The translations under genes and the position numbers were made by a program. Source: Flaccisagitta enflata (Eukaryota). Taken from it: DNA of 64,000 bases. Below are positions 1 through 48,712 of this stretch, piece by piece (position 1 is the stretch's first letter; every line of letters begins with the position of its first letter). Where the stretch lies: NCBI GenBank assembly GCA_965153355.1, contig OZ231126.1, positions 47,802,001-47,866,000 on the forward strand, in the 5' to 3' direction. The notes below the pieces were generated by a model that saw only the letters and a list, made by a program, of their open reading frames with translations, was not told the origin of the DNA and did not search any database.

Positions 1-3000
1 GTATCAGTCTCAACCTCTTTAAGATTTAAGAATAAATCTAAAGGTATTTTAGGCTTTTGACCTAAAAAGACAAATTGTGGTGCATACCCAGTTGTCTGAA
101 GCACACTTATATTATAGAAGAAACAGGCCATTGCTAGGGTTACTTCATCCCATTCACTGCCATTGTCTGCGGCCATTTTGTAAATTACTCCTTTTAAGTT
201 TTTGTTGAATCTTTCACTTAAGTTGGAAGTTGGATGATAGGAAGATATGAAGTGCAGTTTAATTGAATTTATTTTGCAAAATTCTCGTAATGCTGGTGAG
301 TCTAACCCATTATCAGTAACTAAGGACTGGCAAAAGCCAAATCTTAAAATATACATTTTTTTAAAAGCTTCAACTATAGTAGCTCCTCTTAGGTCTGGGA
401 TAGCCTGAGCTAGTCCATATCTAGACCAACACTCAATGCCCGTGAGGACAAAAGAGTAGCCTTCTATTGATTCATTACTTAAACGCCCAATAGTATCAAT
501 AAATACTTTTTCATTTGGCTTGGAGGCTGTAATTTGTAAAGGAGGAACATTTCCTGTCCCACGTTGGTCAAACTGTTGACAGATTTTACATCTACTAACT
601 AGTAATTGAAGCTGATTTAGTAAATCAAATACATAATATTTTTCCATTATATTTCTTGCGGTTTTTTCTGCACTGTAGTGACCCATATTGTCATGATAAT
701 GATGATATAGGTCTGGTATCATATCTGGAGGTAATACTATTACTAGTCTATCATCGATTTTCCTCTTTAAGATCTTATCATCTATTTGAAATTTATTTTT
801 ATATTTTACATAACTTTTCAACTCAGGCTCTATTATTTGATTAAACTTCGGAAATTCTCCTTTCTTCAAATATGAAAAGAACTTTTTTATGATTTCAGAT
901 CCTTTTTGAATGGCTGGTATGTCTGTCTGGTCTGTAATTAAATTAATAGCTACCTCTGATCCCGTCGCAAATGTGCTCATCATTGGAAGCCATGAGCGAC
1001 TTGGGTCGACGTCATCTTGTCCATACTGCGCCAGTGCTTCTGACGCCGATAAATCCGGATGTGCTGCTGCTGCTGCTGCTGGTGATGGTAGTGCCGCTGC
1101 TGCGGCTGATGTCGATGCAGCAGAGTGATTTCCTCCAATCCACGGAGCAACGACTGCAGTCGCCGTTGGTGCCATCAAGGTGGCGTTTTTCATCGTCTTC
1201 ATTTTGGGAGCTCTTTTTGTCCACGTGGTCTTTTTCGCCCGCCACCACTCTTTTCTTTTTTCGTTCGCGGTCATTTTGCCTGAAATTGGAAGAATGGTGG
1301 ATAAGTCAGTATTTTCCCCCTTTTTAAGAGTAGGTTCTTCCGAAACTACATTGCACAGTGGGGAGATTTCTTCTGCTTCTGTAGGCAAAATGCGTTTTCT
1401 AATATTTTCCCATGTTTCAGCTGAATGGCGTGATAAACTGTCAACTGGTTTCATATAATTAGAGCTGCCTTTTTTATATATCACAGTAGTATTTTCTTTG
1501 TCTAAGACTGAATCTAAAAACTCAATGAGCCTATGCTGCCTTAGATACTTGCCACTAAAACCTAATTTTAAAGACGTTAATGCCTGGCAATCAATTCTAA
1601 TTATTACCTTTGTAAACCTAAGATAGTAATAAAATTTGCGAATTGCATAGTACAAACCTAATAACTCTCTCTCTGAGCTTCCTGCCTTCCGTTCTGTCTC
1701 ATTGAAAGCTCTACTTCCAAATGCAATTGGTACTTCTAGCCTTTTTATCTTTTTACTAGGTAATTCTATATCTTTTATTTGTGATAGGGAGTAGCCTACG
1801 CCCTCACCAGAAGAATCACAGGTCACTATCATTTCAGTATCATAAGTTGGGTGAGCTAATTGGGTAGCATTAACTATTTGACCTCTGACCTTATCAAAGG
1901 CCTTTGTATGTTCTTCTGTCCAGTAACTTTCAATTCTTTCGGGAAATTCTTTTTTAAGTAGATTATACAAGCATTTTACTGTTAAGCCGTATCCTTCACA
2001 AAAATTTCTATAGTAATTAGTAAACCCCAAAAATCTCATTATTTCCTTTTTTGTTTTAAGTGGCCTGTGCCAATTTTCTAGTACAGCAGTCTTAGATTTT
2101 TCTATGCTTATAAAGCTCTTGTCGGTATATAAGCCTAAAACCATAGTTCCATGTGTAAAAAGTTCTAGTTTATCTAAACGTATTTTAACATTGTATTTAA
2201 CTAGTTTTGAAAAAACTACCTTAAGTACTTTCCAATGAAAATCTGACCCGCCTTCAAAAGTGAAAACGAACCAGTCATCTACATACACGGCGACAAATTC
2301 TCTCACCTTCTTGCCATCAATGACCTCATCAATGCTTTCTACAATTTTGTTCATGCAAACCTGAAAGCTATTTGCACTACAGTACAAACCTTGCACAGTT
2401 CTCACATAAGCTAGATTACCTACATCGTTTGCCGTCGTGGTATGTAGGTACTTAATGCAATCACGATTGACTGCTACTGAGAAAAAACCTTGATTTATAT
2501 CGAATTTTGATAGGAATTCAAATCCTTGCATTTTATTTCTTAGTGTTTCTATAAATGGTAAGTTAGAAGACTGTGGTTTGCATATGGAATTAATCAATCT
2601 TGCGTCAGAAACAAGACGATATCCTTTTAAAGAAGAATAATCATTTTTACCTGGTTTCTTGACTAAAAAATTGCACATTCTGAATGCGCTTGCTTCCTCA
2701 GCCTTAACAAAAACTCCTGCACGGAGCAAATGCTCCTCCATTCTAGCTAATAGTTTTTGTTCTGGTAGGCTTTTCTTATAATTATTCTGGTAGGCACGTT
2801 TATTTTCATGAACCTCAAATTTTGTATTATGGAATTCGTACGGCACGCTGCCGATGTCGTAGTTATGACGCGAAAAACATGGCCTATATTCTTGAATTTC
2901 TTTTCTAACTCTGTTTTGTAAGTTTTTGTCACACATATTTAAATTTAGATCTTTTGAGTCGAGATTGAAAAATTCATAGTCATGGAACTCGTCTATAGGT

Positions 3001-4073
3001 CTTTCTATCTCATCTAAAATCCTGTAAATCGTTTCTGCTTCACTATCTGTTGGCCTTTCCCACACGTATTCAAACTTAGGTTCCATGCATACATCCTCAT
3101 TTTCAATGAACAATTCGGCTAAATTGAACAGTTTCTCACCTTTTCCGCGCTGTTGGGAGCCGCCTTTGAAATGCTGATTGGTCGCTGAACTTGCTTGCGT
3201 GATTGGCATCACCGCCATCGGCGATGCAGACATCGTCGTCGCGTTATTCGTCATTGGCATCGTCGTCGTCGGCATCGTCGTCATCGTCGTCCCCGTTGCG
3301 ATTGGCCTCGTCGACATTGTTGATGCTATTGCCGGCGCTACCGGCGCTACTGGCGTCATCGGCGCCACCACTGTTGTCGGCGGCGTCGCCGTTACTGTCG
3401 TTGACTTCGCTGTTGTTGCCGCTGTTTCTGCTTCTGTTTCTAATGTGTCGAGAAAGTCTTCTATTTCGCGGAAGAGAGTGCTGTCCGGCGTTGCGATTGG
3501 CGAACCCAAAAGCCTTTCTTCATCCTGTATTTGGGGTTTTGGGGGAAATGATTCTTTAATCAATTTGATATGGTCAGAAGAAGGGGATTTGTTTACAAAT
3601 TGTGTATATTTTATTTCACTTTTCCCTGATGGAGCAGAAATGGTTAATGTTTTTGACTCCATGTCGATTTTTGTTTTTAGTTTCTCCATGAGACTCAAAC
3701 CTATAATAGGATAGTCCCAAGCTAGATCTGCATTTACAACGAAAAAGTCAGTTTTTAGATCTATGTCTCCTATTCTAAGTCCAAACAAACCTATCCCCGC
3801 CCCAGGGATGCTATTTCCAGTTGCACCAACTAGATTTATCTCATTATTTAACGGTTTCAAATCAATTGCAAAATGTTTCTCTTTTTCAGAAATAAGTGAC
3901 CAATTTGAGCCAGTATCTGCTAAAGCAGTTATTATTTTATCCTTAAATCCTGTCTTTCTAAGGGTGATCTTTATAAAGATCCCCTTTTTACCCAATTTAT
4001 TAATATTATCTTGATTATTTCTGTCTTTTACTTCTGCCCAGAGTCTTTGAAGTTCTGGCCTCGATAGTTTAAA
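1..4073 (-). CDS. pol: Pol polyprotein (protease, RT, RNase H, integrase), partial, open to the window edge
   Basis: Manual translation gives ~1357 codons with no stop. PR: LADTGS (Asp 3917-3915). RT: YRLVSDARLIN, SKFDINQGFF, YVDD (2285-2274), FLGFTNYYRNF. RH: TCDSS, ERELL, VDSLSR. IN: HDNMGH..CKIC, FIDTIG, VTDNG, YHPTSNLSER. Confidence 0.96.
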
Positions 4074-5785
4074 GAATTTGGGCATCTAGCCTTGATATGA
4101 CCTAGTTTACCACATCGGTAACATTTAGTGTTTGATAAGTCCACAGCTGAAACCTTTTCTTGGGTTTTCTCTTGTTTTTGCAATTCTCTGTCCTGAATAC
4201 CAGCATTATTTCTCCTGTCTTGCCTATCTGGATTGTACATTCTAACTACAGGCAACTTTCCTTTGTAAGGAGTCAAACGTTGTTCTCTTTTTGAAACATT
4301 ATGTGGTTGTTGGTTTCTAATGTTATTCATAGTAATATCATTTCTAGGTTGAGCTTCTAAGATTAGCGAGTTGGACATCGCTTCCTCCATATTTTTTGGC
4401 ATGGAAAGCCTTAAATTAGCTTTTAAAGGATGTGCTAGTCCATCTAAAAACCTAAACAGGACTAGGTTATCAATTGTATTTGGTGGTAGGCCTACAAAGC
4501 ACTGAGTACTTAATCTTTTTAACTCTAGACCATATTCAAAAGCCTTTTCTCCACTTCGTTGCCTTCTTGCATTGAACAATTGCAAGGCTGTGGTCTGATT
4601 GGTTGAACTTACTGCTTTAATGAACAAATCAATAATCTGATTTAGGGTTAGATTTGTATTTTTTGTTTCATCTTCTGTCATAATTGAATCCAAAGTACTA
4701 TAGTAAGGCTCAATTACACTTGTACTAAGTCTGGCTAGTCCCTTTGCCTTTTTGACTTCTCCTGCGCTAAAAGCGCGTTTTACTATTTTGCCCCATGTCT
4801 CCACTGGGAGAGACGCAGAGCCAGTATACTTAGGAATCTGAATAGCACTGGGTGACTCTACTTTTACGGACACTTCATCTCCTTCTACTTCTATTTCTTG
4901 AGCTGGAGCTGCTTGTTTTGCGGAAGGTTGGGCGTTACTACTATTGCCACTACTGCTGCTACTATTGCCACTATTGTTGCTACTATTAGCAGCAGGGCTT
5001 TCTACAGTAACTGACCTTCTGCTTCTAGATTTAGGAATTTTACTCATCAGATCCTGATTTTCTAACTTTAACCTTGCTATCTCAGCTTTCATTTTTTTTA
5101 TCTCACTACCGCTATTGTTATTAGTCGCGACTCTCACCTCTTCAGTCATGCTTGATGGACTACTTGATGGACTGCTCGATGTTTCTTCCACGGCCAAGAT
5201 TTTGTCATCTGAGAATAGAACAGTTGGTTCAAAGTTAATTTCCTCTTGAATGGGGAATATTTTTTCTTCATATCTTTTATTTTTGTTTCCCACATTCACA
5301 ACCAAATCGAAGTGATCTGCTTTCATTTCTTCAAGTTTTAAGAATGTGATTAACCTATTTATATTGTACATCTCATCGTGACTTATGTCCAAATAGGAAG
5401 CTCCACTCAATATCTCAGAGAATTCACTAGCACCAAGATCTCTGAAGATTATTTTTTCTTCATGGATTCCCTTTTGCAGGTCTAAATAGCCTGGGAAACC
5501 GTCATTTGGTGATTTATACCCTTTTCTGTAGGCCTCAATTGTGTTCATGATTGGTTTGTCTTGTTTTTGAAAGATATTATCTAAGTCGGTTACCTTGGTC
5601 ATTTTTTCGTTAAAATCTAATCTAATTATTTGCATATTATGGTCATCATTGCATTTTCGATGACAACAGCTAACCATTTTGTTTTTTATGATAAAACGTA
5701 TGTCATCTTCTCCACACACTTTAAAATTGAAAGCTGTGACATGTTCTCCTTCGTTACATTTATCGAAACAGTAGCAAGTTTTCAC
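4028..5785 (-). CDS. gag: Gag-containing ORF (585 aa): non-Gag N-terminal ~200 aa, coiled coil, capsid-like core, CCHC zinc knuckle
   Basis: IPKYTG...W and RRQRSGEKAFEY..EL...FLDGL capsid-like motifs; CYRCGKLGHIKARC (4123-4082). The track start is GTG; the frame opens at 5803. Confidence 0.9.
   Translation of the reverse strand: MKTCYCFDKCNEGEHVTAFNFKVCGEDDIRFIIKNKMVSCCHRKCNDDHNMQIIRLDFNEKMTKVTDLDNIFQKQDKPIMNTIEAYRKGYKSPNDGFPGYLDLQKGIHEEKIIFRDLGASEFSEILSGASYLDISHDEMYNINRLITFLKLEEMKADHFDLVVNVGNKNKRYEEKIFPIQEEINFEPTVLFSDDKILAVEETSSSPSSSPSSMTEEVRVATNNNSGSEIKKMKAEIARLKLENQDLMSKIPKSRSRRSVTVESPAANSSNNSGNSSSSSGNSSNAQPSAKQAAPAQEIEVEGDEVSVKVESPSAIQIPKYTGSASLPVETWGKIVKRAFSAGEVKKAKGLARLSTSVIEPYYSTLDSIMTEDETKNTNLTLNQIIDLFIKAVSSTNQTTALQLFNARRQRSGEKAFEYGLELKRLSTQCFVGLPPNTIDNLVLFRFLDGLAHPLKANLRLSMPKNMEEAMSNSLILEAQPRNDITMNNIRNQQPHNVSKREQRLTPYKGKLPVVRMYNPDRQDRRNNAGIQDRELQKQEKTQEKVSAVDLSNTKCYRCGKLGHIKARCPNSLNYRGQNFKDSGQK
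4067..4073 (-). promoter_or_regulatory. -1 ribosomal frameshift heptamer U_UUA_AAC (gag to pol)
   Basis: TTTAAAC in X_XXY_YYZ phase just after the knuckle; the -1 frame reads straight into the protease. Confidence 0.85.
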
Positions 5786-8700
5786 AGTTTTGATATTGTT
5801 TTTTTATTTTATATAAAAGAATGCCATCTCCTGGTCTTATGTATTTTCTTATTTCTTTAATCACTCCGTTTTTGTCAAATGTTAGTCCTAGTTTTATGTC
5901 ATAATGAGAGTTAGAAAATGACAGATACTCATTTTGGTGTGTGTCGGCAATTTCTGCCATTTCTTTAAAACCCAGGGTAAACACATCACCATCTCCAGTA
6001 AAACTCGTCACACTTCTTTTCATCTTACTAAAAGGGTGTTTTTTAGAAACTAAAGGAAAATTCTTCAGCTCTAATATATGCCCCTTTTCAGTTGCCTTGA
6101 ACCCTAACATCATCAAATCAAAACTGTCCTCATACATAGTTGGCAATTTCTCAGCTAATTGAGGTTCCGGTTTTTCATGATAGAATGTTTCCTTCTTCCC
6201 AACGGGACTTTTGTTTTTTCTAGTTCCTTCGATCCTTTTAACACGCCCTCTCTGGTTTCTATACACAACTATGCGATTGTTGTCTCTTATATGGTCGTAA
6301 CGGTAATCACCACTTTTCTTTATACTTTTGGACGTTCTGTCCAAGTATTGTTCTATTGTCTCTTTTGAGTTCAGTGTCTCTATTTTTCCTCTTTCAATTT
6401 CATCACAAATCACACTGATAACTTCATCTTTACCATAGTCCTCCTCTCTTCCCCTCTGATCTTGATCACTGACCCTATCTTTTCCCCTCTGATCTTGATC
6501 ACTGCCCTTATCAAGATCTGCGATATGATTTATTTGACTCAAATAACTTTTATTTTCTATTGGTTTAACACAATCACAGGTTCGAGTGATACATTTTGAA
6601 ATATCAGTGTCTTGAGATTTGATTTCCTCAGGTTTCATTTTTTCAGCTCCTGTCATTGAACGGAAAAAGATTTCTTGATCTAGATCATTGGTTAAATCCG
6701 TGATTTTATGAAATTTTCCCCTAAAAAAGTCGTAATTAGGCGAGAGGTCAGGGGTCATTGACCTTGAGGGAAAGATTTTGAAATCTGCAGGTTCAAGTTT
6801 CAGTTGTTTCATTGGTTGATTAATGAAATATATATTTATATCTCCACCTTTGCTCTTTTCCACGACCAAAAACATTTCATGAACAACATTGCTTTTACCA
6901 TCTATCTGAAATTGCTCATAAAATTGATGAAACTTAACTAGTTTATCATTTACAAAAATGTGTTGTAATAGACCATTACGGAAAAATTTCATAGTGATAT
7001 CCATAGTCTTTAACCAAGTCTTATCGATTTTTATTTGGGTTTTATAGCTGTACTTATTTGTTATAATATCCTTGAAGTCATTCGTTTCATTATTTTCTTC
7101 CCATTTTTTAATCAGGTTTTCTGTCACAACTGGTCTAACTTGACCCTCTTTCTCATAAATCTCAATTTTTACCCCCTTTCCATCATTAGCAGTTTTTGCA
7201 GTGTAACGGAAAGGCTTGTAGATGTCTTCAGTAGCTCGTGTTTTGTATAAATATTCATTTTTATGATTTTTAGATGTAAAAGTGTAATCTGTTATTCCTA
7301 ACCTTTCTTGGCCCTTAATGATAAACACGTCTGAAATGCTATCCTTAACCTTTTGTTTTAAGACCTCCCAGTCGTCTTCTGGGTCCCCGCTTTGTTCTAC
7401 AAAAATATTATCTTTGGTCAAACAAATTAAGTCCTTTTGATCTAGGTTGGTTTCCATTTTAGAATTGAACTTATTGATTAATTTTAGGTCCTCATGAAAC
7501 TTATAATCAAACACGATTTGGGGTCTCATTTTAGGAAGTTTTGCGAATTTCCAATTTAATTGTCCTTTAAATGTGTCTAAAAATAGCTCCGCGCAGTCAT
7601 TTTTTCCAGAGTTCGGTTCTTTTGTTTTTTGTCTTATGATTTTTTCACAGATTGGTTTTTGTTCAAATTCCATATTTTCGTCGTCTCGATATTCGTTCAC
7701 ATCTTTTATTGCCATAACTTCTAGGTCATGGTTTAGAGATTCATTGATTTCCATTTCTTCCCTTTTTTCGTTCTCTTGTTTACCATGATTATGATTATTT
7801 GGACTGACTTCATTTTTATCATTGTTTTTATTTTCAAGCTCCTCATTATCACAATTATCATCATGATTTTTGTCGTAATCAAGTCCATCATCATGATCGG
7901 CTTCATACTCACGCTCGTCACAATGATCACCGCCGTTATCATTTACAGTGTCATTTCCACGATCTTCACTATCATCGCCAGGACTGTCATCACCTTCATT
8001 GCCACATTCATCTTGATCATCATCATAGTTATCACCATCATAGCCGTGACTGTCATCATGATCATCACCATCATCATTGTGATTATCATCATAATCATCA
8101 CCGTCATAGCTGTGACTATCATGATTATCATCACGACCACTATCATCATTTCCATCATCCTGGTCACTGTCATCATCTCCATCATTTTCACTATCATCAC
8201 TTTCACCGGAATAATCATCATCATCCCAATCATCATCCTCTGAGTAGTAAGTATCTGAGTCATAACTCTCATTGACTCCTTCTACTATGTCTTCCTCATT
8301 GATAGTGTGTAGCAATCTGTAGTCTAAACTGGATAACGGGATTTCCTCACTTCTTTCTTGTGCGTTCATGACTACGTATCTGCAATTCAAATTCCATTTA
8401 GCATGTTCTGTGAACGGGTCATCATCTGCCTTCCAACAGCTAAGACGAAGCTTGCAACCTACACACACTACTTTGTCTTCTATATAATTTAAGGAGGAAC
8501 AAAAACAGTTAGGCTCATGGTTAATTAAACTTGGTGGGTAATAGGTTTTCAAAAAACCCATGGATGCTAAAGTTACTGGGTTAGAGAGTTTTCCTGCGGG
8601 CCATTTACTCTTTTGAAAGCTCTTTATCCTTCGGGCCCTGTTGAAGAGTTCTGTTGTTTTATTCCCAAATGTCACAAACTTAGTCCTTCTTTTCTTCCCT

Positions 8701-10125
8701 TCTAAACATGCCCATATCTCAACGGGATGAGTGAAAAAACCTTGACTTACAGTCATTCCATCTTCATATCTTTTTATCGCGTCAACCCATTCTTTCCTAG
8801 GCTTTTCAGGGACATGAGTCAGAAACCTTGATACTAACTCTGCTGCTTCCCCACATGCAAGAGCCTCATCCTCTTTGTCAGGATAATTATCAATTTGATG
8901 TTCACAGAACTTCGTTCCAACATTCTCAACTTCATTCTCATAGATACATGCATTCTCACACAGCATTCCTTCCACGTGATTCGCACAGTATACGTGTTCC
9001 GCACAGTACTTTTCTGACGCAATGATGTCTGCTATCTGGTTTGTTAGTTTGTTTATCTCGTCTTCCTTCTTTACGTAAGGGAGTAAATATTTTGGGAAAT
9101 CATCTTGAAATTCACTTTTTATCTTTTGTAAATGTCTTAATACTTTTGTCATGACTGGCCTCGGGTCGGCTGGAATGGCCATGTCCTCGATAATAGGTAA
9201 TGTTAAACCTGGGATCCCGAGATGCAATCCAGATAAAAAGAAAACCCCATAGTAAGAGCCAAGTTGTTGGCGCCTGATGCGTACTATCTGAGCCGGTTCA
9301 AAGAAACCCTTAGCAGATAGGCTATCTTTTTTCAAACTTGGATTTAGGTACCAAAATTCCCCTAAGTGATCGACATAAGAACCTACGTTTAGAGTAGGCA
9401 AAAATGTTGGCTCTTGACAAACAAAACATCGACATTCCTTTGCATGTATTTTTTCCCCATAGACTACCCTTTTGTCTTCCATGCCTTTTGCTAAACCAGC
9501 CAGCTCGAGGGCTCTTGATATGTTATATTGAGTTAAGGTTTGGTTTCTTTTTTTCTCACTAATTGGGATATTTTCATAAATTTCTTCAAAATTATTGGCA
9601 GAGCCACTAGAGCGATATTCTACTCTGCCCATATTCCAATTATTCCTGTTGCTAAATTCATATAATTCCTGCAACTCTTTACTGTCTAGAAGTAAAGGCA
9701 TTACTAACCGTTTAGGTTTGATTCCATGCTGGATCCTGAAAATTTTTTCTTGCGGGATGTTAGTTGTACTTTCGTTGGTCTTAGTTTGATTTTGATTTTC
9801 ACAATTGTTTTTACTTAAATTTCGTTCGTTGCAGTTGATTTCATTTATTATTGTTTTTAATTTGGAAATAATTTTATGCGTAATTGCGATCAAGTCCTTC
9901 GTTTGTATTTCTTTAACGCCCTTAACGCATTCTGATATGAGATTCACTTCTTTAGCATCATTCGAGGTCAGGTCGTCTCCTTCAGACATCGTTAAAATCT
10001 TAATCTCTAAATTTTGTAAGTCAGTAAAGATCTCGTCTGGATTTGGGTTTTGTGATTCCCAGTGATGCGGAACATTAGAACACGAGTCCTCTGAATGCGT
10101 TGTATACGGCTGTTGTTGTTCATGC

Positions 10126-10218
<93 letters not shown>

Positions 10219-10397
10219 AACAAAACGATTAATCGATTCACATTTTGAAAATTTGGTTCATCGGCGAAAATTGTTGATATTGTTTGTATTGTTGTAGTCA
10301 CTACTTCTTGAGCGTATTGGCTGCAAGATTGCATTTGCAGCTCAGTGGCTTTTGCGTCTGCCACTCTTTGAAGAAGCTCCAGACTTTTCTCTGCCAC
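5760..10397 (-). CDS. Retroelement accessory ORF3 (1545 aa): polyQ, BIR (IAP repeat) domain, Asp-rich tract
   Basis: 4.6-kb ORF with Q31 at 10217-10125, BIR at ~8639-8373 and an acidic D/E/N tract at ~8270-7790. The track start is GTG; the first ATG is at 10334. Confidence 0.9.
8373..8639 (-). other. BIR domain (baculoviral IAP repeat) within ORF3
   Basis: RARRIKSF..KWP...LASMGF...DKVVCVGCKLRLSCWKADDDPFTEHAKWNLNCRYV has exact CX2CX16HX6C zinc ligands plus the R..SF..WP, LA.xGF and W...DDP..EH BIR signatures. Confidence 0.93.
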
Positions 10398-11803
10398 TCA
10401 CTTTTCAGTCTCATTCTTTCATTCAGACTTTCAGTCGTAATAGACGGATCATCGATCGGTGGCTGATTTTGCAGCTCTGAATTTATGTTAATGAGAGCCA
10501 AAATTGTTTCATATATTTCATTTCTATTCATACCAATGCTAGACCTCGTCTGAATGCCATTTGCGTCATTCATCTCAATTGCATCTTTTATTTGAAATGC
10601 TACATTCTCAGTTAGCGAGTTCGCAGAGAGCAAATTCTCGCCTTCTATCCTTTTTCCTTCCATGTAAAGTTCATGGAACTGATTTTTATCAAAAGTTTTA
10701 GGCTCAGGAGCCCCGTAGAGATACCAATCCCTAGCTTCTGCCCCTTTCACCTCCTCTATCGTGAACACTTTGTTTTGTTTTGTCTTAATTTCCATAGGTT
10801 TTTTCATTTTATGATACAAATGGCTCAATCTTTCTGCTATTTTGTCCTTTGAATTGTCACATACATGCCTGTTGGCCTTTGCCTTAAAGGCTGGACGAGA
10901 AATTTCAAGAATATCAAAAATGTTTTTTATTTCTTTTATTTTCTCTGTTTCTAGGAATTTTAGTATTCTAGCCTCAGATCTTTTCTGCATCTCCCTTGAT
11001 ACAATTTTAGTTGGATCGGAACACCCACAGTCGATCTCAGATACACCCTCAATAATGGTTTCCTTTTTGGTTGTTATTGCCTCCTGCAATTCGGTCACAA
11101 TTTTGTCAATCAGTTCGAGATAAATCAGATGATTAAAGCCTTGAGAGTTTTCTAATTCTTCTCCCCCCATCACAGCAGCTTCCATCATAGAGGTGAGTAA
11201 GTAAATGCGATCTCTAACAAAAAGCGGTACCTTTGGCTCGATTTTCATGCATTCATCTAACAGTTGTGTCATAGATTGGTGAAACTTTATTTCTAGTTTG
11301 CCTTCTCTATTGATCTCTATTGTCGCGTTATTGCAACGGGATTCCATGAAACATTCTTTCTTTGATACTTCAACCTTACCGTTCGAAGTGCTGTAATCCG
11401 GGTTTACAGGTCCTAACGTCGTTGATGGGGTCCTTTCATCGACGTTAGCAGGGTTTTGACCCTTCGTGGAATCGTGTCGATCCATTGGCGTCTTTTCACT
11501 TACCTGTCTTTTATGTAAAGATATGTCTGACTCTTTTCTCTCAAAGATGCCCAAGTCCATTTGTAAGACTGGTGGGAGAGTCTCAGACATTCCAGGAAAG
11601 ATTCTATGCCTGTCTATGTGATTCACTGTGGTGATCAGCCTAGCAAACCGCACAAGGCACAGAAAAAGATATAAAGATAAAAGAATCAAGAATTTAAACA
11701 AATAAAGGACTGGACTCGGATCGTAAGCGATTAAGAGAAGTCCTATCCCTCCGAGCTGAATCGATAATACAGTGAAAATTGATTCACTTGTCACGCTATT
11801 CAT
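10301..11803 (-). CDS. Retroelement accessory ORF2 (500 aa) with N-terminal hydrophobic/transmembrane segments
   Basis: Long ATG-initiated ORF inside the element. Residues ~8-55 are hydrophobic (IFTVLSIQLGGIGLLLIAY...VLYLFKFLILLSLYLFLCLV); the rest is charged and helical-looking. Confidence 0.8.
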   Translation of the reverse strand: MNSVTSESIFTVLSIQLGGIGLLLIAYDPSPVLYLFKFLILLSLYLFLCLVRFARLITTVNHIDRHRIFPGMSETLPPVLQMDLGIFERKESDISLHKRQVSEKTPMDRHDSTKGQNPANVDERTPSTTLGPVNPDYSTSNGKVEVSKKECFMESRCNNATIEINREGKLEIKFHQSMTQLLDECMKIEPKVPLFVRDRIYLLTSMMEAAVMGGEELENSQGFNHLIYLELIDKIVTELQEAITTKKETIIEGVSEIDCGCSDPTKIVSREMQKRSEARILKFLETEKIKEIKNIFDILEISRPAFKAKANRHVCDNSKDKIAERLSHLYHKMKKPMEIKTKQNKVFTIEEVKGAEARDWYLYGAPEPKTFDKNQFHELYMEGKRIEGENLLSANSLTENVAFQIKDAIEMNDANGIQTRSSIGMNRNEIYETILALININSELQNQPPIDDPSITTESLNERMRLKSEWQRKVWSFFKEWQTQKPLSCKCNLAANTLKK

Positions 11804-11945
11804 AAACGTCTCTGATGTCTACAAATGAACTGGTAGCAACATAAAGTTAAGTAAATGAATATGATTGCTAACACGAATGTTATCAAGGCTGTCTCTATTA
11901 CCGTTGATCTTTCTTTTTCCAGTCTATGAGTAACATTCAAGTTCA

Positions 11946-12212
11946 TTAATAATCCTCGTCCTCAAAAACTATTTGCCTAAACCACTTAAATATTAATCTA
12001 CCGTTTACTTCTTCCAAGCTAAGCAGCTTTTTTATTACCCTTGGTTTACTTCTTAGGACAGGTACTAAGAACGTAGACAGAAACTTACGAATTATACTAG
12101 AGATGAGTGTATTTCCAAAAGAAATAATCTCACTTTTATTTTTTCTTCTTACATGCACGTCTGTCTCAGTACAGATGACTTCTATATTACCGAGTTCAAC
12201 AACTTTACTCAT
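11946..12212 (-). CDS. Retroelement small ORF1 (88 aa), unknown function
   Basis: ATG-initiated, first ORF of 60 aa or more after the PBS, same strand as the element; no recognisable motif. Confidence 0.45.
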   Translation of the reverse strand: MSKVVELGNIEVICTETDVHVRRKNKSEIISFGNTLISSIIRKFLSTFLVPVLRSKPRVIKKLLSLEEVNGRLIFKWFRQIVFEDEDY

Positions 12213-12399
12213 CGCCTAGGAACCGGCAATAAATGTCGTCCTAAAAGGCGATAGAATCTAGGAAAAAGCACTCTTTACTTTAGCTACGACCTTAGGGTGT
12301 TTCACTCTAGATGATCAGGATAAGTCCTTTGATTAGTGTTTATTAAGATTCATCAAATTGCTATTAGGTTGTGTTAATTTATTTAAGCTATACAGTAGT

Positions 12400-12412
12400 A
12401 CCGCTGCCACCA
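12400..12412 (-). promoter_or_regulatory. Primer-binding site, tRNA-Leu type
   Basis: TGGTGGCAGCGGT is complementary to the 3' end ...ACCGCTGCCA-CCA of animal tRNA-Leu(AAG/TAG) and lies just inside the LTR end. Confidence 0.85.
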
Positions 12413-12417
12413 TAAAT

Positions 12418-13050
12418 TGTGTATATATATTAACTTGATCTTACTTAGTTTAATAGGTTCTAGTATAGCTAAAATTTAGTTCAACCTAGTTGTCATAGGG
12501 CAGCAATAATAAGATGTTTTTAAATGCTACAATATGAATTTATTGAATTAAGAAGTTAAGTATATTTAGCATATGATGAATCTTGGTTGTGGTAATAAGT
12601 AGTTTTGAGTTGCTACTAAAGACTAAGACAGAATTTAATTCTGAAGTCTGTCCTAAGGAGAATGGAAGATATAAGAAAAGACAACCTTACTATTTAGACT
12701 TTATCTAGTCTTAGCCAAGATGAATATCTGCTGGCTATAAAGACTGATGGTCTCACAACTTAGTCTATATGAAAACTCAAGACTTGTGATACACCTTAGT
12801 CTCTTTCCTCGAAAGCTCAAGATGAAATTTCTTCCGTCTAGTAGAGCTCAAATCCAGGAAGGATCTCTTCTCAGCTATTGGGGGGGTTTTTATACTACGT
12901 AGCCTTCCACGAGACCGTTGCGTGAAATTTCTCGAAGAGTCACGCAACCGATTTTGGGTTTCCCCAAAATCTAAAAATAGCAACATAGGAATGTTGGTCT
13001 AAGGAGGGTAGAGAGTGGAAGGAGAGAGGGGTTCCAGATTATTTAACACA
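12418..13050 (-). repeat. 5' LTR (~633 bp)
   Basis: Minus strand starts TGTGTTAAAT (13050) and ends ATATATACACA (12418), giving TG...CA inverted termini, with the PBS 5 nt downstream. Contains TATAAAAA (12894-12887) and AATAAA (12544-12539). The second LTR is outside the window, so boundaries are inferred. Confidence 0.8.
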
Positions 13051-13649
13051 TACCCCTCAAAAAAAATTTTGAAAATTTATAGATTCAAAATGTTTTCCAA
13101 AAAAAAATGTGCTTACAAAAATTTTTTAAAAAAATTTTTTTTTTAAAAAAATCAAGATTAAAAAAATTTGTTAAAAAAAAAAAAGCTGTATCAAAAATTT
13201 GTGATAAAATTTTTCTTGAAAAAAATTCTTAAGTCCAGGAAATAATGTTACTAGATACATCATAAATACCCTTATATTTTCTTAACCAATACTCAGAATT
13301 TACTGAAATCTTGCAGGGGAGCTTTAATTGATGCAATAAACCTAAACAACAAGTTTGAACAACATTGGTGGACCTTTACTACCCTTCCCCTATGTAAATT
13401 GCACAAGTCCAAGAATTAATATTACTACAAAAATAATAGGCAAAGGGTATCAAATATTTATGAATGTTGTTGAAAGTTGGTACACAGGTTAGTAATGCCC
13501 CAAAAACAACACTGACCAAGTTTCATCAACATCTGAGTTGTGGTTCTCAAGTTTTTAAGGGTTGACACGACGACGACGAACACACGACTCACTACACGAT
13601 CAAGGCTATGTTATAGTCCTCGACGTAAACTGATCGTCGAGGACAAAAA
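13051..13649 (-). mobile_element. Non-autonomous Helentron/HINE-like element, probably interrupted by the LTR element
   Basis: Minus-strand end TTTTT + 10-bp hairpin GTCCTCGACG/CGTCGAGGAC (13616-13644) + TATA + (GTC)n, the same layout as the other HINE-like copies here. Confidence 0.5.
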
Positions 13650-14039
13650 TCTTTAAGATGAGCGCAATTTGGTTTCTGTAGCTTTAGTCGTTTAGAAGTT
13701 ACAAATAAAAAAATAAACCTATATCCAAAATGATTGATTCTGCAAAGTTAGTTTAAAATATGTGAAACCAAATCATCTTTTACAAAATAAAAAGCTATAC
13801 AGAGAGCTTGAAATATACAAAACTCGAATCATCAGTAAGGTAAAGACATCATATTACCCCCTTGTACTTTCAGTATGAGGTTTTGGTCAATGCCTAGTGA
13901 ATTGATCAATGAATTGCCCAGGTGTCGGTATACTTTTTTCCAAGATTGTAGACGGTATCTACTGTAATTTGAGGAATATGTGACATTTCGGCTTCTTAAC
14001 GACATGATGCCTCATTCATTCCTAAATCTTTTAACACAG

Positions 14040-15246
14040 CTGTTGTTCCGTCCACCACATCTCCGGCGATAAATCGAGGCAAAACCCGCAAAAAGCAATC
14101 CCCGTCCGTCGCGCATCCCGTTGTTCTCAAAGGCTACTTGTCATCACACGGGCGCGATCAGTGGGGGAAACCGAATCGCGTCATCGGTGGCCAAACCAAA
14201 ACCATAATTATCAATCACGATCCTGATCCTGCTCTAGATTTCTACAATACAAAAACGAATCGAACTTTCTTTAAAATCCGCCCATGGGCGCCACACACGC
14301 CCGAACAACACTTTTGCGACAACGTCGAGTGCAGCCTGATCTACGTCCTGTGTGGCTTCTCAATCGTCTTTGTGTCAGCCTTTATCTACATAGCTTGCTG
14401 CGAAAGACGCAAAGTCACTCGTCAAATGCGAGCGCAGCAACGACGACAAATGTTTGATAGACGGGGATCGCAATCGATTTTTACCAGTGACAGCGGCAAC
14501 CTAACCGACATATCCAACGGAGTTGGCGACAGTGGGGAAGTCTTCCATGAACATCCGCCGCCACCGCCATCGTATTGGTCCAGTCAGGGGACAACGCGGC
14601 CCGCTCACTGCGGATATTTCAGAAATTCGTCCAGTTCAAGCACCACGGCTAGTGGTAGGTCGCTGCGATGGTGGCCCATTTCTCTCTGGGACAGTCTGCA
14701 GAATCCACTTCGAACGCTGCAACTGGACGTCCGAGAATTTGTCGACTCAAATCCGCCACAAAGGTAATGACCTATGACTATGAACAGGATCAACATACTA
14801 ACAGACAGAAGCAACTTTAGATAATGAAAAAGACAAAGAAAAAGAAATACGGAGAATGAGACAAAGGAAGAGAGACTTGCGGGGGGGGGGAGCCAAATGA
14901 ACATAAGAGAAACAAGGAAAGAAAATCAGAAAGAAAATAAGAAAACAAGGCCGGTCTAATACACGGCTACCCAAGTCGCGTGTGGGTGGGCAGGAGCGAT
15001 GTTAAAGACTAAATGAGGTCGCCCAAGGGCAATAAGTGGTCGGCGATACCCGTTGCCCTGCTTTGCATGATTGTCAATCGGAGCGAGAGGAAGCAAGACA
15101 GACGGACCACCCAACCAACCAATCGACATAGCAGACCACACAGTTGCCTGCGACATGGCGGATTATAAAGCCGCTTGCACGCGGCTCTTGAGATGAAAAA
15201 AGACCAAGAAACACAAAATCCAGTCATCCAAAGATCACACATGGTC

Positions 15247-15336
<90 letters not shown>

Positions 15337-18300
15337 AACGGAGAGAGAAATTCACTTCCATGACATACATTCCCTCGTATCACATACATTCCTCCGTATC
15401 ACTATGGCAAAATTAAGACATCTTTTTTCACATGGTCTTATTATAACGAACGACTCAAAATCATCCTTGTTTCTAGTCTCACGAGGGACTCATATCGCCT
15501 TCCTCTCGGTGTCTTAAATTGGAAGCAGATTGTGTCGCTGGCTTAGGAAAACCACATGGGAAATCAAAAGAGTTGATCCTAGTCCTCTTCGACATGGAAT
15601 TTCCGCGATAGAAAACCATCCAAAGTCATTCATTTTCTTCTCATCTCTCTCACACCACTCAGCATTTTCTAATTCTAGTCTGTCTCGAGAGAGCCCAAAA
15701 CGCATGAGACTGACATTTATTCAAGGCAACAGCGAAATCGAAAAGTTCTGTTTTCATCCTATTTTTAAGTGCGTCCTCGCACTTCTATAAGAGGTCATGT
15801 CCGTTGGTCAGTCAGTTGGTCGGTCGGTTGGTCGGTCACGCAAACGTTTGCAATGCGCAGAACGGCTGATTTTGACGTATTTCTTCATTACTACGTATCA
15901 CCTTTCATGCCTCACCACATTCATGTTTATTCATTCATTCATTCATTCATATATTCGTTCATTCATCAAAAACGTTCATTCACAAAATCTTAATCAAGCG
16001 AGGTGCACTTATTGGCCTTCACTTGGCCTTGTTTCAATATCACATGCGAATTCTCTTGACTGACTCAATAACTCAACAAAAACTCAACTACATAGCTAAA
16101 ATATCTAATGAGAACTCAACCGACCAACCAACTACTTAACCGATCAGCCATTCGACCAATTGAACAACCAACCGACCGACCGACCCAATTCCACCACAAC
16201 TAACCAGGTAATGAAAGCACCCCGAAAATGAGCAGGAATGACGAGCGAATGACATAATAACTGATTTAACTAAAGCTAGTGAAATATAATAATCACCAAT
16301 AGTAAAATCTGGCGCGATATTCCACAATATTTGCATCTTGATTCTGACAATTTCATTTTGAGTACAGGACGTGAGACCATAAGCCAGAAGAACAAAGGAA
16401 TTAAGCAAAACCTGCTTGTGTTTTCCAGGGCATAGCTTGCATTGACTACAAGGCCGTATGAGTACTATTGGAAGTTAATACAAGTCTTAGACGGACTGAC
16501 AGAAGCGGAAATGTGCGTTTTCATACTTATTCCACTTGAGCATCTTGTCACGACGTACCGACAGACCAAAGGACGGTAAAAAGCCTCATGGGGAGTCGCT
16601 GTCGAGCCACTAAAAATATCGACTACTTGGTTTCCTTTGGTGGATGAAAAGTTAATCTTAGCTATTTTCCGCTTGTCTGCTACCTTGAAGCCAAGCCTCA
16701 GGACGACCGGCGCAGTGGGGACAAAGATGGGGGTTAGTTTTCCATCAGAAATGGCAACAGTTTCTACTGTAGAAACGAGATCCGGCCATCCAACCAAGTG
16801 GAAAGTACAACAACTGTGCTGTCGATGTATTCGATTTCGGTCCAGTCATTTCACTGCAAATGTCTCCACGTTCCATGTGTCAGGACATGTGATTTCTAAG
16901 AAAGGGTTATTCTACGTATCAGGTTTACAGGCATATATTATTGACTTCTCACTGGAGACAAGTGTGTTAGGAACACTGTGTTCCAGATGGTATGCAATCT
17001 ACCTTCTATTTCTCTGCTCTCCTTGGACACGGACTTGTGACTATATAAGAGGCTTTTTATGAACTGTGAGTCCGACCGTACTATGTAACGCCAGAGTGCA
17101 AAAAGGCGCATTCCGCCTCTAGAACCCCCCCCCCCCACAGCGTCTGCGTCGATACTGTAACCGCGCGTTACTATTTAATTTTGTATCCCTTCGCATTACC
17201 TTTTGATTCCGTATTTCTGAGTTAAATTATGCCTTTTCTCAGGCAGCCAATGGCGGTCAACCTTAACGTAGCACATTCCATTCCTCAGCTCTACATCCAA
17301 ATGATAATCAAATGAATTCATGATCGGGTAGAATGACCTCGAAAGGCACCGCCTCGGCAACGCCTGCCTGCCTTTCGCTTCTGTCTGAGATTAATGGTTC
17401 TGTCGCCTCGGCGTTTCTCATTTGCGATCTATTCAATTGTACGGTTTACCGAACGCGCGCGGCAGGGCAGAACAAAAGCCATAATTCACACAAAAGAAAA
17501 GCTGCGTGAATTAAACCGAACAAAAAAAGCAAAGATCTTGTTTTGAATCGCGCACATGCAAAATACTCATCATATGGTATGTATACTATGTATATATCTA
17601 ACACACAAGTCTTTTCACATTACCAAGTCTTTTCACATTACCAAGTCTTTTCACATTACCAAGTCTTTTCACATTACCAAGTCTTTCCACATTACCAAGT
17701 CTTTTCACATTACCAAGTCTTTCCATTACCAAGTCTTTTCATTACCAAGTCTTTTCACACATTACCAAGTCTTTTCACATTACCTTTTCACATTACCATG
17801 TCTTGTTTTTCACATTACCAAGTCTTTTCACATTATTTCATTTTTCACATTACAAGTCTTTTCACATTACCAAGTCTTTTCACATTACCAAGTCTTTTCA
17901 CATTACCAAGTCTTTTCACATTACCAAGTCTTTTCACATTACCAAGTCTTTTCACATTACTAGGTCTTTTCACATTACTAGGTCTTTTCACATTATCCAG
18001 CCTTCCATCCATTGATCTGACACGCAGTCATCGCATAGATCTATTACCCACAAATCCCATTCCTGAGAGTCGTTCGGAATTTCTACCCCTGCCCAACCAC
18101 AACCCGCCCCTTTATTTACCACCAATCCACTTCTTATAACGTTATAAGTAACATCTACCAGGTTCAAAAGCAAGACGTTGCCCGTCAGAACAACATCGTT
18201 CAAGTTAATGATCATTTTTAGTTGCGGACACGCAACTCTATAAGAGGCTTTGTCGGTCTGTTGGTCCATTGGTCCGTGGTCATCGAGTTGAAAAGTGGGA

Positions 18301-24041: not shown

Positions 24042-26100
<2,059 letters not shown>

Positions 26101-27659: not shown

Positions 27660-28390
27660 AACAGGTCACTCAAGGGCAATATGTGGTCAGCGATACCTGT
27701 TGCCCTGCTTTGCATGATTATGAATTGGAGTGAGAGGAAGCAGGGCAGCGGCCCCGAAGGGGACGAAGTCCTGTAGAACAGGGGACTTTCTTTCGTTCTG
27801 GCATTACGTCCCCCCTAGACCCTCTCAGGCCTGAAATCTGCCCTCTCAGCCCCAAATCTGCCCTCTCAGGCCTTGAATCTGAAAGGGCAGATTTAGGGCC
27901 TGAGAGGGCAGATTTCAGGCCTGAGAGGACAGATTTCAGGCCTGAGAGGGCAGATTTCAGGCCTGAGAGGGCAGATTTCAGGCCTGAGAGGGCAGATTTC
28001 AGGCTTGAAAGAACAAGTTTCAGGCCTGAAAGGGCAGATTTCAAGCCTGAGAGGGCAGATTTCAGGCCTGAGAGGAAAGATTTCAGGCCTGAGAGGGCAG
28101 ATTTCAAGCCTGAGAGGGCAGATTTCAGGCCTGAAAGGACAGATTTCAAGCCTGAGAGGGCAGATTTCAGGCCTGAAAGGACAGATTTCAGGCCTGAGAA
28201 GGCAGATTTTGGGCCTGAGAAGGCAGTTTTCAGGTCTGGAAAGGCAGTTTTCAGACCTGAGAAGGCAGATTTCAGGCTTGAGAGGGCAGATTTTGGGTCT
28301 GAAAGGGACCGGGGGGGGGGACAAACACATGAACGAACAAAAGTCCCGTGTTCTACAGGGCTTTGTCCCCTTCCGGGCCACTGCCCAAAA
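27660..28390 (-). mobile_element. Non-autonomous element with long sub-terminal IRs and internal 21-bp minisatellite (GGGCAGATTTCAGGCCTGAGA)n
   Basis: IR GGGCAGCGGCCCCGAAGGGGACGAAGTCCTGTAGAACA (27743) / TGTTCTACAGGGCTTTGTCCCCTTCCGGGCCACTGCCC (28386). Confidence 0.75.
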
Positions 28391-31396: not shown

Positions 31397-35527
<4,131 letters not shown>

Positions 35528-37395: not shown

Positions 37396-38375
<980 letters not shown>

Positions 38376-45054: not shown

Positions 45055-45143
<89 letters not shown>

Positions 45144-48200: not shown

Positions 48201-48712
48201 GAATCGCGGCCAATCGCGTGTCTACTGGACCCAGCCACCGCCTGGGACGCAGCGGCGGCGGCCGAACTGCGCATGATCGTCCAATCGTCGGTTGGGTTGG
48301 AGGCAGAACAAAGATCGTCGTCTTCCGCGCTTTGAGCACTGACGGTCGAATCCAACGGATCGGAGATCGACCATCGATTCCATTCAGCCATGCAACGAAT
48401 CACGGAGGCGGGACACGTCTGCAAATGCACGTGCATGTCGCCTCGTCGCAGTTCCCAAGCGCAGCCGTTGCAGGCATTAACGCAAGGGACGCGCTGAAAG
48501 AGGCAAACGAGACTAGCGTGGTCTCCGACTTGGCACGCGTGAGGCTCGAAGGAGCAACCGGCGTTAGGGCACCGAACTAATGGACAGCAAGCGCCACCGT
48601 CGATTTTACGATTACGCTCATGAGTTCGTCTGGAGAAGCAAGAGTTACATGGGGCGTGTAGAGCTTGTACAGCTAGTTGAGCGTGTAGAGCTTGTAGAAC
48701 GTGTTCCGCCAT
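43526..48712 (-). CDS. F-box only protein 30/40-like (TRAF-type zinc finger + F-box); exons 48712-48001, 46884-45525, 44134-43842, 43713-43526
   Basis: N-terminal CPLVRCPNAGC..H....H...C....VPCVN...GC and CPASVIRCMAEWNRW; FRRDEF..H...H.....L.GWVE.RCPLA..GCPF; F-box LPPEVLEAIFRHLDGFSL. Confidence 0.9.
44600..45270. repeat. Polypurine (GGA/GGGA) tract followed by (GA)n and (CA)n, intronic
   Basis: Directly visible low-complexity sequence. Confidence 0.9.
47036..47980. mobile_element. TA-flanked MITE (Tc1/mariner/pogo-type) in F-box gene intron 1
   Basis: TA-GGGTAGAGTGGGGTAAAATGGGTCA / TGACCCATTTTACCCCACTTCACCC-TA, with internal copies of the GGGGTAAAATGGGTC motif. Confidence 0.85.

Follow-up and report, generated by a model that had tools for sequence, protein, structure and literature searches.

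The first 13 kb of the window, a stretch of 64,000 nucleotides of DNA, hold the 5' part of an LTR retroelement, Metaviridae-like and of the Ty3/gypsy type, from a marine animal; its 3' LTR, PPT and target-site duplication lie beyond the window. All features described below are on the minus strand. The 5' LTR (12418..13050) measures 633 bp, ends in TGTGT...ACACA, and contains TATAAA at 12894-12889 and AATAAA at 12544-12539. The primer-binding site (PBS) TGGTGGCAGCGGT (12400..12412), a 13-mer beginning with TGG, starts 5 bases 3' of the LTR. Its assignment to tRNA-Leu is tentative; no tRNA genes were found within the window. Three DNA runs were compared with the window, of which X1 and X2 derive from organism A and X3 is a marine metagenome from a separate study. 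An LTR contig assembled from X1 (540 nt, 12509-13048) had a depth of 498, versus approximately 206 for the internal contigs. The LTR-to-internal ratio was thus 2.4 in X1, and it was approximately 3 in X2 and approximately 1 in X3, contig depth not being equivalent to copy number.

The PBS lies within a leader of 614 nt (11804..12417) that has seven upstream ATGs and holds ORF1 (11946-12212; 88 aa from ATG to stop). It is followed by ORF2 (10301-11803; 500 aa from ATG to stop), ORF3 (5760-10334, 1524 aa from ATG to stop; 5760-10397, 1545 aa from stop to stop), an open gag frame (4028-5803; 549 aa from its first ATG, 591 aa from stop to stop), and an open pol frame (3..4085; 1361 aa) that runs past the left edge of the window. 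The first-pass annotation had placed ORFs of 88, 500 and 1545 aa between the LTR and PBS and an open gag-pol on this strand, and these positions are correct. The element is unusually long for its type, integrase ending only after 13 kb or more, and more than 2,000 extra codons, including a BIR domain, do precede the capsid region. The 500- and 1545-codon frames far exceed chance expectation at 62% A+T. The reading of ORF1 as a cargo gene was not sustained: it is not longer than chance ORFs nearby (on the plus strand of the same 14.5 kb, four further ORFs that begin with ATG have 83-152 aa) and a Pfam search returned no match, so that it is unsupported as a gene and has probably arisen by chance or is an upstream ORF. 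As set out below, ORF2, ORF3 and the gag frame are a single gag ORF of approximately 2,590 codons, which opens with the ATG at 11803 and closes with the stop at 4028, and the additional codons extend Gag at its N-terminus.

Pol and the capsid region

The pol frame encodes, in the order PR-RT-RH-IN required for Ty3/gypsy (Metaviridae-type) elements, a protease (3684-3941, pol aa 49-134; a weak gag-asp_proteas match, E 1.4e-3, with a DTG at the start of pol), a reverse transcriptase (RVT_1; 2019-2660, aa 476-689), an RNase H (RT_RNaseH; 1512-1922, aa 722-858), and an integrase with its zinc domain (Integrase_H2C2; 570-731, aa 1119-1172) and core (rve; 231-524, aa 1188-1285). The best match among solved structures was Ty3 Gag-Pol (7q5b, E 1.8e-28). 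In a tree with 31 word-search matches, to each of which pol is at most 30% identical, its end branch was the longest.

The capsid-like region and nucleocapsid occupy 4037-4861 of the gag frame and include a single CCHC knuckle (4076-4126; Pfam, E 1.5e-4). Pfam made no call for the capsid region; hhalign against the Ty3_capsid/Retrotrans_gag region (generic gypsy gag L007) gave a probability of 84.6% and an E-value of 6.7e-6 over 45 columns, so that of the two assignments that of the capsid is the weaker. Within the gag/pol overlap (4028-4085), the heptamer TTTAAAC (4067..4073), when read in the gag frame, falls into the X XXY YYZ register and is proposed as a candidate site for -1 frameshifting into pol; folding of the sequence 3' of it was no better than that of shuffled sequences (z 0.44). 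The element shares PR-RT-RH-IN, the CCHC knuckle, a TG..CA LTR and a PBS adjoining the LTR with Ty3 of yeast and ordinary Ty3/gypsy elements, but differs from these by approximately 2,000 additional residues N-terminal in Gag.

Modules of the extended Gag and its BIR domain

From its N-terminus, Gag consists of a putative hydrophobic hairpin, conserved modules to which no fold could be assigned, a BIR domain, acidic repeats, two more conserved modules, the capsid-like region and the CCHC knuckle. A hydropathy scan detected two hydrophobic segments in ORF2 (aa 7-27 and 29-60), and this pairing at the N-terminus likely represents a membrane hairpin, which remains a putative feature. It is followed by module A (ORF2 aa 189-443) and, within ORF3, by a polyQ tract (10111-10218), the Cys-rich module B (approximately aa 234-590), the BIR domain (8373..8630), a variable region of acidic repeats (7962-8185), a middle module (6612-7220), and module C (5844-6413); module D (5255-5728) lies in the gag frame. 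The BIR domain excepted, none of the approximately 1,900 extra residues matched Pfam or solved structures.

Relatives were retrieved with ORF3 aa 346-1545 as the query in a search that exhaustively covered 1.84 billion representatives. There were 257 matches at E <= 1e-3, and among the best 150 of these, 5 fell outside the BIR stretch and the others at the BIR domain. The ORF3 modules were matched by the proteins P0041, P0034, P0165, and P0048. Two metagenome proteins, each approximately 30% identical to the element in the window, are encoded by single ORFs. P0041 (1067 aa) is collinear with ORF2 plus ORF3: its residues 213-465 are 30% identical to module A (E 3e-35), and a second match covers ORF3 aa 234-487 (E 2e-32). 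The N-termini also align, in that P0041 begins where ORF2 has its ATG and carries its hydrophobic segments at the same place. P0034 (1385 aa) is collinear with ORF3 plus gag, with matches to ORF3 aa 322-676 (E 3e-43) and aa 1329-1518 (E 9e-16) and to gag-frame aa 26-183 (E 2e-8), while its residues 1107-1385 are 42% identical to gag-frame aa 315-589 (E 1e-61). The layout is kept in P0033, P0034, P0041, P0048, and P0165 at only approximately 30% identity, which points to selection having acted on the extension over a long time.

The BIR domain (ORF3 aa 590-675) was recognized by Pfam as PF00653 (E 1e-12 and 2.6e-13), and the nearest solved chains were BIR chains of BIRC2 (cIAP1; E 1e-8). The Cys-Cys-His-Cys zinc ligands are kept, in agreement with the Cys-x2-Cys...His...Cys pattern of the IAP-type BIR fold of approximately 70 residues; in the alignment, C, C and H do not vary across 4/4 rows, and both rows that extend to the last Cys have it. 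The CW..DDP..EHAKW stretch aligns with the BIRC2 chain, and the relatives vary at two aromatic positions. Type II BIR domains have a peptide-binding groove that accommodates an N-terminal Ala motif, and such a groove is a candidate feature here. The element has the fold signature and zinc ligands in common with baculoviral and cellular IAPs; in contrast to these, it has a single BIR domain with a 17-residue insert, without RING or CARD, inside a retroelement Gag.

A BIR domain has been described in the planarian element Burro/GYPSM1, which is likewise an oversized, gypsy-like LTR element with a giant polyprotein, and whose extra domains hint at interference with apoptosis (PMC6431247). The element in the window could therefore descend from the Burro lineage, residing in another host with its domains rearranged, but we consider this unlikely. 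As described in PMC6431247, Burro encodes all parts in one ORF of 4,873 aa, starting with a Gag with 2-3 CCHC knuckles, followed by BIR, MATH/TRAF, ankyrin, Smc, BCL2-like and env-like parts, and then pol. According to that description, BIR placement, CCHC number and pol frame all differ: the Burro BIR domain sits between gag and pol, and pol is part of the same ORF, whereas here the BIR domain is N-terminal to the capsid and its one CCHC knuckle, and pol is in the -1 frame. At E-values up to 5, Pfam matched no piece within the window to any of the other motifs reported for Burro (MATH/TRAF, ankyrin, Smc, BCL2-like, env-like). Moreover, an LDAH-like protein of the host had no close named relative, and no flatworm was present among the 120 matches listed for it.

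Continuity of the gag frame

In the window as assembled, ORF2, ORF3 and gag are separated by stops. ORF2 and ORF3 overlap by 97 nt (10301..10397) with a -1 step, and ORF3 and gag overlap by 44 nt (5760..5803) with a +1 step at a run of seven A (5805-5799). Near 10391 and again at 5799/5800, a one-base difference in length separates the window from the contigs of all three DNA runs, in both places at full contig depth. Because the contigs differ by one base inside each overlap, the ORF2, ORF3 and gag frames are continuous, and the two one-base breaks arose either in this copy or in its assembly. The listed X1 pieces contained no further gaps. Overall, we regard it as highly probable that this locus is a Ty3/gypsy-type element whose gag is a single giant ORF.

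The first-pass annotation had instead proposed three cargo ORFs. Three separate accessory genes (88, 500, and 1545 aa), each translated alone in the manner of Ogre ORF1 or the small ORFs of MDG1, would agree with the stops in the assembled window, and separate ORFs upstream of gag are known in other Metaviridae (bioRxiv 10.1101/2025.03.14.642691; PMC6431247). This arrangement is nevertheless very improbable, since the stops occur only in the short frame overlaps and are read through in the contigs of all three runs, a single ORF runs across the junction in P0041 and in P0034, nothing in the relatives corresponds to the tails of ORF2 and ORF3 that are out of frame, and ORF1 is of chance length. 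The published systems also differ from the element in their organization. Members of the Drosophila MDG1 group carry sORF1 and sORF2 upstream of gag and, like the element, for which this is a prediction, encode a membrane-spanning product 5' of the capsid; as described, that product is specified by a separate ORF of approximately 70 aa with one transmembrane segment (bioRxiv 10.1101/2025.03.14.642691), whereas here two hydrophobic segments lie within the first 60 residues of a 2,590-aa ORF. Cer1 of C. elegans and plant Ogre are gypsy-type elements that likewise have additional coding sequence 5' of or within gag. According to the respective descriptions, the extra product of Cer1, CERV, is made from a spliced mRNA and lacks a BIR domain (PMC10309623), and in Ogre ORF1 is a frame of its own and the LTRs are very long (PMC6431247).

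Alternatively, the copy may be intact and its junctions sites of programmed recoding, by a -1 shift at ORF2/ORF3 and, at the seven-A run of ORF3/gag, by either transcript slippage or a +1 shift. The presence of this run would fit such a model, as would the -1 shift that the element probably already uses for pol. However, the in-frame state exists as DNA at full contig depth in all three runs, no slippery heptamer was seen at the ORF2/ORF3 junction, and P0041 and P0034 are plainly in frame; recoding is very improbable.

Evidence that the extension belongs to the element came from several sources. Its relative synonymous codon usage (RSCU) correlates with that of gag/pol (0.88) and not with that of three host ORFs (-0.34), composition is uniform along the element, and contig depth is even over the extension in the three DNA runs. 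Individual contig pieces bridge the pol/gag junction (X1, 3352-4876), the gag/ORF3 junction (X1, 5477-6087; X3, 5169-6964), and the ORF3/ORF2/leader region (X1, 10229-12355). On the basis of codon usage, even depth, and the order of parts shared with the relatives, the extra coding sequence is part of the element. An origin of the extra 6 kb as a nested insertion or misassembly, which the first-pass annotation had named as outcomes that would overturn its proposal, or as a captured host gene, has nothing but the unusual length in its favor and is for practical purposes excluded by contigs that bridge the junctions at even depth, codon usage that fits gag/pol and not the host ORFs, and relatives at 30% identity with the same order of parts.

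Age, expression and proposed role of the element

The window is approximately 99.7% identical to the X1 contigs, with 36 differences in approximately 11.5 kb. Among the 32 coding substitutions considered, taken from 40 of 397 table rows, those listed for pol plus gag comprised 8 synonymous and 2 non-synonymous changes, and the corresponding numbers were 7 and 10 in ORF3 and 1 and 2 in ORF2; in these listed substitutions, the extension is less constrained than pol plus gag. Gaps elsewhere, of 2 bases in ORF3 (X3 contig) and 23 bases in pol (X2 contig), indicate that broken copies exist. In the polyA RNA run X9, of which 12.16 million records (approximately 6% of the run) were read, 303 reads were placed, all as partial fits at the low-complexity positions 3248-3291, and within that fraction of the run essentially no reads fell on the rest of the 13 kb. 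The earlier description of the element as young and potentially active is compatible with the near-identity to the X1 contigs, while the two frame breaks of the copy as assembled and the near lack of RNA reads in the part of X9 that was covered speak against it.

Based on its parts, a replication cycle can be proposed. Transcription would start in the LTR, and a tRNA would prime at the PBS. Ribosomes would produce the giant Gag, and those that slip into the -1 frame at TTTAAAC would go on to make a Gag-Pol with a length of at least 3,934 aa; the protease would cleave both precursors into mature proteins. The hydrophobic hairpin would tether assembly to a membrane. The BIR domain may bind the exposed N-terminal peptides of caspases or IAP antagonists, and such binding would let the cell survive during replication of the element, in the manner of baculoviral IAPs. 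By analogy with these proteins, an anti-apoptotic function of the BIR domain is put forward tentatively, at somewhat less than even confidence. The suggestion that the element carries host-manipulation genes is thus plausible for the BIR domain, and does not extend to the other extra parts.

Retrotransposons are usually regarded as minimal gag-pol machines. In the literature consulted, Burro was the one described animal LTR element that was found with apoptosis-related domains. We give evenly balanced credence to the possibility that the present element represents a previously undescribed, old lineage of retrovirus-like elements of marine animals with a membrane-anchored Gag of approximately 2,600 aa, in which an IAP-type BIR domain was gained independently of Burro and of baculoviruses; this would be a third convergent case of a mobile or viral genome armed against host cell death, here inside its structural protein. 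For annotation, the locus illustrates how a frame error or mutation of a single base can give one giant ORF the appearance of several cargo genes. With respect to biology, if this is a second lineage next to Burro, from another host and with its domains in another order, capture of BIR domains by retroelements would be recurrent. The single BIR domain of approximately 90 residues offers a compact module for asking whether transposons manipulate host cell death.

Layout of the element

The element runs on the minus strand from 13050 to the left edge of the window. Its 633-bp LTR (13050-12418) has TGTGT...ACACA ends and contains TATAAA (12894-12889) and AATAAA (12544-12539) motifs, and five bases beyond it lies TGGTGGCAGCGGT (12412-12400), the primer binding site (PBS), putatively for tRNA-Leu. 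A leader of 614 nt with seven upstream ATGs precedes the ORF2 ATG at 11803, followed on the same strand by ORF2 (10301-11803, an ATG ORF of 500 aa), ORF3 (5760-10334 as an ATG ORF of 1524 aa, 1545 aa from stop to stop), the gag frame (4028-5803), and the pol frame (3-4085), which continues past the window edge. Pfam assigned a BIR domain to ORF3 (aa 590-675, E 1e-12), a CCHC motif to gag, and RVT_1, RNase H, integrase zinc-binding and rve domains to pol, and the first part of pol also gave a weak match to an aspartyl protease, DTG included. These coordinates agree with the ORFs, LTR, PBS string and gag/pol described in the first-pass annotation. The 88-aa ORF1 of that annotation is likewise present (11946-12212, minus strand), but its length does not exceed chance, as four ORFs of 83-152 aa occur on the other strand of the same 14.5 kb; with Pfam also blank, it was dropped as a gene. 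The remainder of the window contains no second copy or fragment of the element, and the searches for tRNAs (ARAGORN) and for RNA families (Rfam, gathering score) returned no matches.

Continuity of the frames upstream of pol

Codon phases derived from the frame coordinates place a -1 step between ORF2 and ORF3 within a 97-nt overlap (10301-10397), and a +1 step between ORF3 and gag within a 44-nt overlap (5760-5803) that includes a run of seven A. Window positions 1-14000 were compared with four public runs, i.e., two DNA runs of one organism, coded A (X1 and X2), a marine metagenome of another study (X3), and a polyA RNA run (X9). Contigs of all three DNA runs displayed a one-base length difference from the window inside both overlaps, carried at full local contig depth, and thereby render the three frames continuous. 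Over about 11.5 kb, 36 positions distinguish the X1 contigs from the window, and the X1 pieces listed have gaps only at the two junctions; X2 has some window-specific letters in common with the window, yet its frames are continuous at both junctions. The two frame breaks are therefore either private to the window copy or errors of its assembly.

An exhaustive search of 1.84 billion representative proteins with ORF3 aa 346-1545 yielded 257 matches at E <= 1e-3. Among the best 150 of these, five (P0033, P0034, P0041, P0048 and P0165, all ENA metagenome proteins) have matches beyond the BIR stretch, and the others match at the BIR. P0034, a single ORF of 1385 aa, is collinear with ORF3 and then the gag frame. 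In ORF3 it matches aa 322-676 with the BIR included (28% identity, E 3e-43) and aa 1329-1518 (E 9e-16); in the gag frame it matches aa 26-183 (E 2e-8) and aa 315-589, where the CCHC knuckle lies (42% identity, E 1e-61). P0041, a single ORF of 1067 aa, is collinear with ORF2 (aa 189-443, E 3e-35) and then ORF3 (aa 234-487, E 2e-32); its initial Met lines up with the ATG of ORF2, and two hydrophobic segments stand at the N-terminus of both. P0048 and P0165 add matches to two other parts of ORF3. The matches indicate that the order of the parts is kept in elements that are only about 30% identical. The three DNA runs and the collinear single ORFs P0034 and P0041 thus argue strongly against the earlier description of three cargo ORFs; ORF2, ORF3 and gag form one ORF. 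A word-index search with ORF3 at near lengths gave 4140 candidates, none of which reached E <= 1e-3. Metagenome and viral contigs were scanned for related loci with a capsid-nucleocapsid alignment; all 22 loci confirmed in JGI metagenome contigs were weak, matching through CCHC or at 23-27% across the capsid region, and none contained extension modules. The 107 pattern matches in viral contigs included no relatives.

The resulting giant Gag starts on the minus strand at the 11803 ATG and ends at the 4028 stop, which gives about 2,591 codons. Its parts from the N-terminus on are a hydrophobic hairpin (ORF2 aa 7-27 and 29-60), module A in ORF2, a polyQ run of 36 CAA/CAG units, the Cys-rich module B in ORF3, the BIR domain (ORF3 aa 590-675), an acidic region of 33/66-nt repeats, a middle module in common with P0165, module C in common with P0034 and P0048, module D, and a capsid-like region with one CCHC knuckle. 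The closest solved structures of the BIR are BIRC2 (cIAP1) BIR chains (E 1e-8), and its zinc ligands are retained across the family. Assignment of the capsid is the weakest structural call: Pfam was blank, and the putative capsid region aligned by hhalign with the Ty3_capsid/Retrotrans_gag region of L007, a generic gypsy gag locus, over 45 columns at 84.6% probability. Outside the BIR, the extension, i.e., the coding part 5' of the capsid region, matched nothing in Pfam or among solved structures; structure searches with ORF2, the C-terminal part of ORF3, and profiles A3, A5 and A2 returned BIR and zinc-knuckle matches only. For P0033 and P0165, the ESM Atlas models were poor (pLDDT 0.44 and 0.32, respectively), with only the BIR or nothing visible.

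The extension is integral to the element. Its codon usage correlates with that of gag/pol (0.88) and not with that of three host ORFs of the window (-0.34), base composition is even across window positions 1-12000, and contig pieces bridge the junctions at even depth, in X1 at pol/gag, gag/ORF3 and ORF3/ORF2/leader, and in X3 at gag/ORF3. Codon usage, composition and junction-bridging contigs make a nested insertion or misassembly untenable.

The pol frame is -1 relative to gag, with an overlap at 4028-4085 that contains a TTTAAAC heptamer (4073-4067) in the X XXY YYZ register of the gag frame. A slip at this heptamer would produce a Gag-Pol of at least 3,934 aa within the window. A hairpin following TTTAAAC was dropped as stimulator, the downstream fold being no better than that of shuffled sequence (z 0.44). 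Judged by sequence comparison, pol is very divergent though of the Ty3 kind, with 7q5b as best solved match (E 1.8e-28) and 24-30% identity to the best word-search matches. In a FastTree of RT-RNase H (32 rows, without named reference elements) it forms the longest end branch and falls outside the chromodomain clade, its placement being unsure. Long spacers with much Ala, Thr, Pro and Met, two in number, separate protease from RT (pol protein aa 135-476, about 2660-3680 nt) and RNase H from integrase (aa 860-1119, about 730-1505 nt); the former includes 9/15-nt repeats at 3248-3291, where many RNA reads fit partly.

Variation, expression and surrounding sequence

In X3-X6, four marine metagenome runs from another study, 34-59% of the sampled element words were present, and no RNA run was among those listed by the run index. 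Together with the near-identity to X1 contigs, these words show the element to be common in the host's natural populations. Some X3 pieces reach only about 94-95% identity (44 differences in 727 letters and 42 in 875), so there are older variants as well. In the 40 rows listed out of 397, 32 coding substitutions were tallied, with synonymous versus non-synonymous counts of 8 to 2 in pol and gag, 7 to 10 in ORF3, 1 to 2 in ORF2, and 1 to 1 in ORF1; within these rows, constraint is clear for the enzymes and weaker for the extension. Four-base insertions (GATC or TCGA) at 770, 5436, 6228 and 7438 were seen in X2 only and could reflect a library artefact instead of real variants.

The first-pass annotation had put the element forward as potentially active, naming RNA-seq coverage as a check. 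In 12.16 million X9 records (about 6% of the run), 303 reads matched the element, all of them partly and at the low-complexity stretch 3248-3291, and the other 13 kb was essentially without reads in this portion; that sample therefore gave no sign of expression.

Host coding pieces lie on the minus strand at 41919-42908, 33027-33446, 60551-60964, 45521-46912 and 47975-48742, and their codon usage is opposite to that of the element. One is an LDAH-like ORF (PF10230 relatives) with 98% identity to a metagenome protein and 31-37% to its best named matches from fish, mollusc, insect and echinoderm; flatworm proteins were absent among the best 120 matches listed. This ORF places the host among the animals, at a distance from the named species matched. 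Others are presumably a proteasome ATPase Rpt6-like exon and Kelch repeats, and there are two further long ORFs. In X1 and X2, the poly(A/T)-rich flank at 13077-14000 is covered at depths between 2e5 and 8e5, versus about 200 in the element, with many contig ends at 13264, 13418 and 13449 and some contig joints stepping back about 165 bases; it seems to hold a very abundant short repeat, dispersed or tandem. A repeat of about 275 bp occurs twice, 22.7 kb apart (34376-34651 and 57105-57369, 86-88% identical), and long micro- and minisatellite arrays (periods of 8, 18, 21 and 24) are numerous across positions 14000-64000, e.g., at 15209-15389, 24923-25238, 27795-28382, 33413-33844, 37916-38322 and 44790-45100.

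Proposed function and comparison with known elements

The LTR would drive a genomic RNA that includes the 614-nt leader with its seven upstream ATGs, from which giant Gag would be translated and, rarely, Gag-Pol, and the protease would release the parts from these precursors. Retroviral Gag is placed on the membrane by a lipid anchor; by analogy, the N-terminal hairpin could bring the precursor to the membrane here. Baculoviral IAPs delay cell death, and the BIR might, as a tentative proposal somewhat short of an even chance, act similarly by binding caspases or IAP antagonists at their exposed N-terminal peptides. Alternatively, it could bind a histone tail in the manner of survivin, or be a plain protein-docking module.

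In the literature searched, the planarian Burro/GYPSM1 was the sole BIR-bearing LTR element found. Burro is described as having an N-terminal Gag and, between gag and pol, the BIR along with parts of the MATH/TRAF, ankyrin, Smc, BCL2-like and env-like kinds, all in one 4,873-aa ORF (PMC6431247). The two elements are alike in having a BIR and, judged against that description, differ in that the extras and BIR of the window element precede the capsid and CCHC; by Pfam, none of Burro's further parts was found in the window element. The small ORFs of the MDG1 group, Cer1 and Ogre also have coding capacity 5' of the capsid, in a different form.

The first-pass observation of a giant gypsy element with long coding sequence between PBS and gag was borne out, and its interpretation found support in part, the reading as separate cargo ORFs being largely refuted. 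The element represents a divergent lineage of the Ty3/gypsy type with a giant, BIR-bearing Gag that is probably membrane-anchored.
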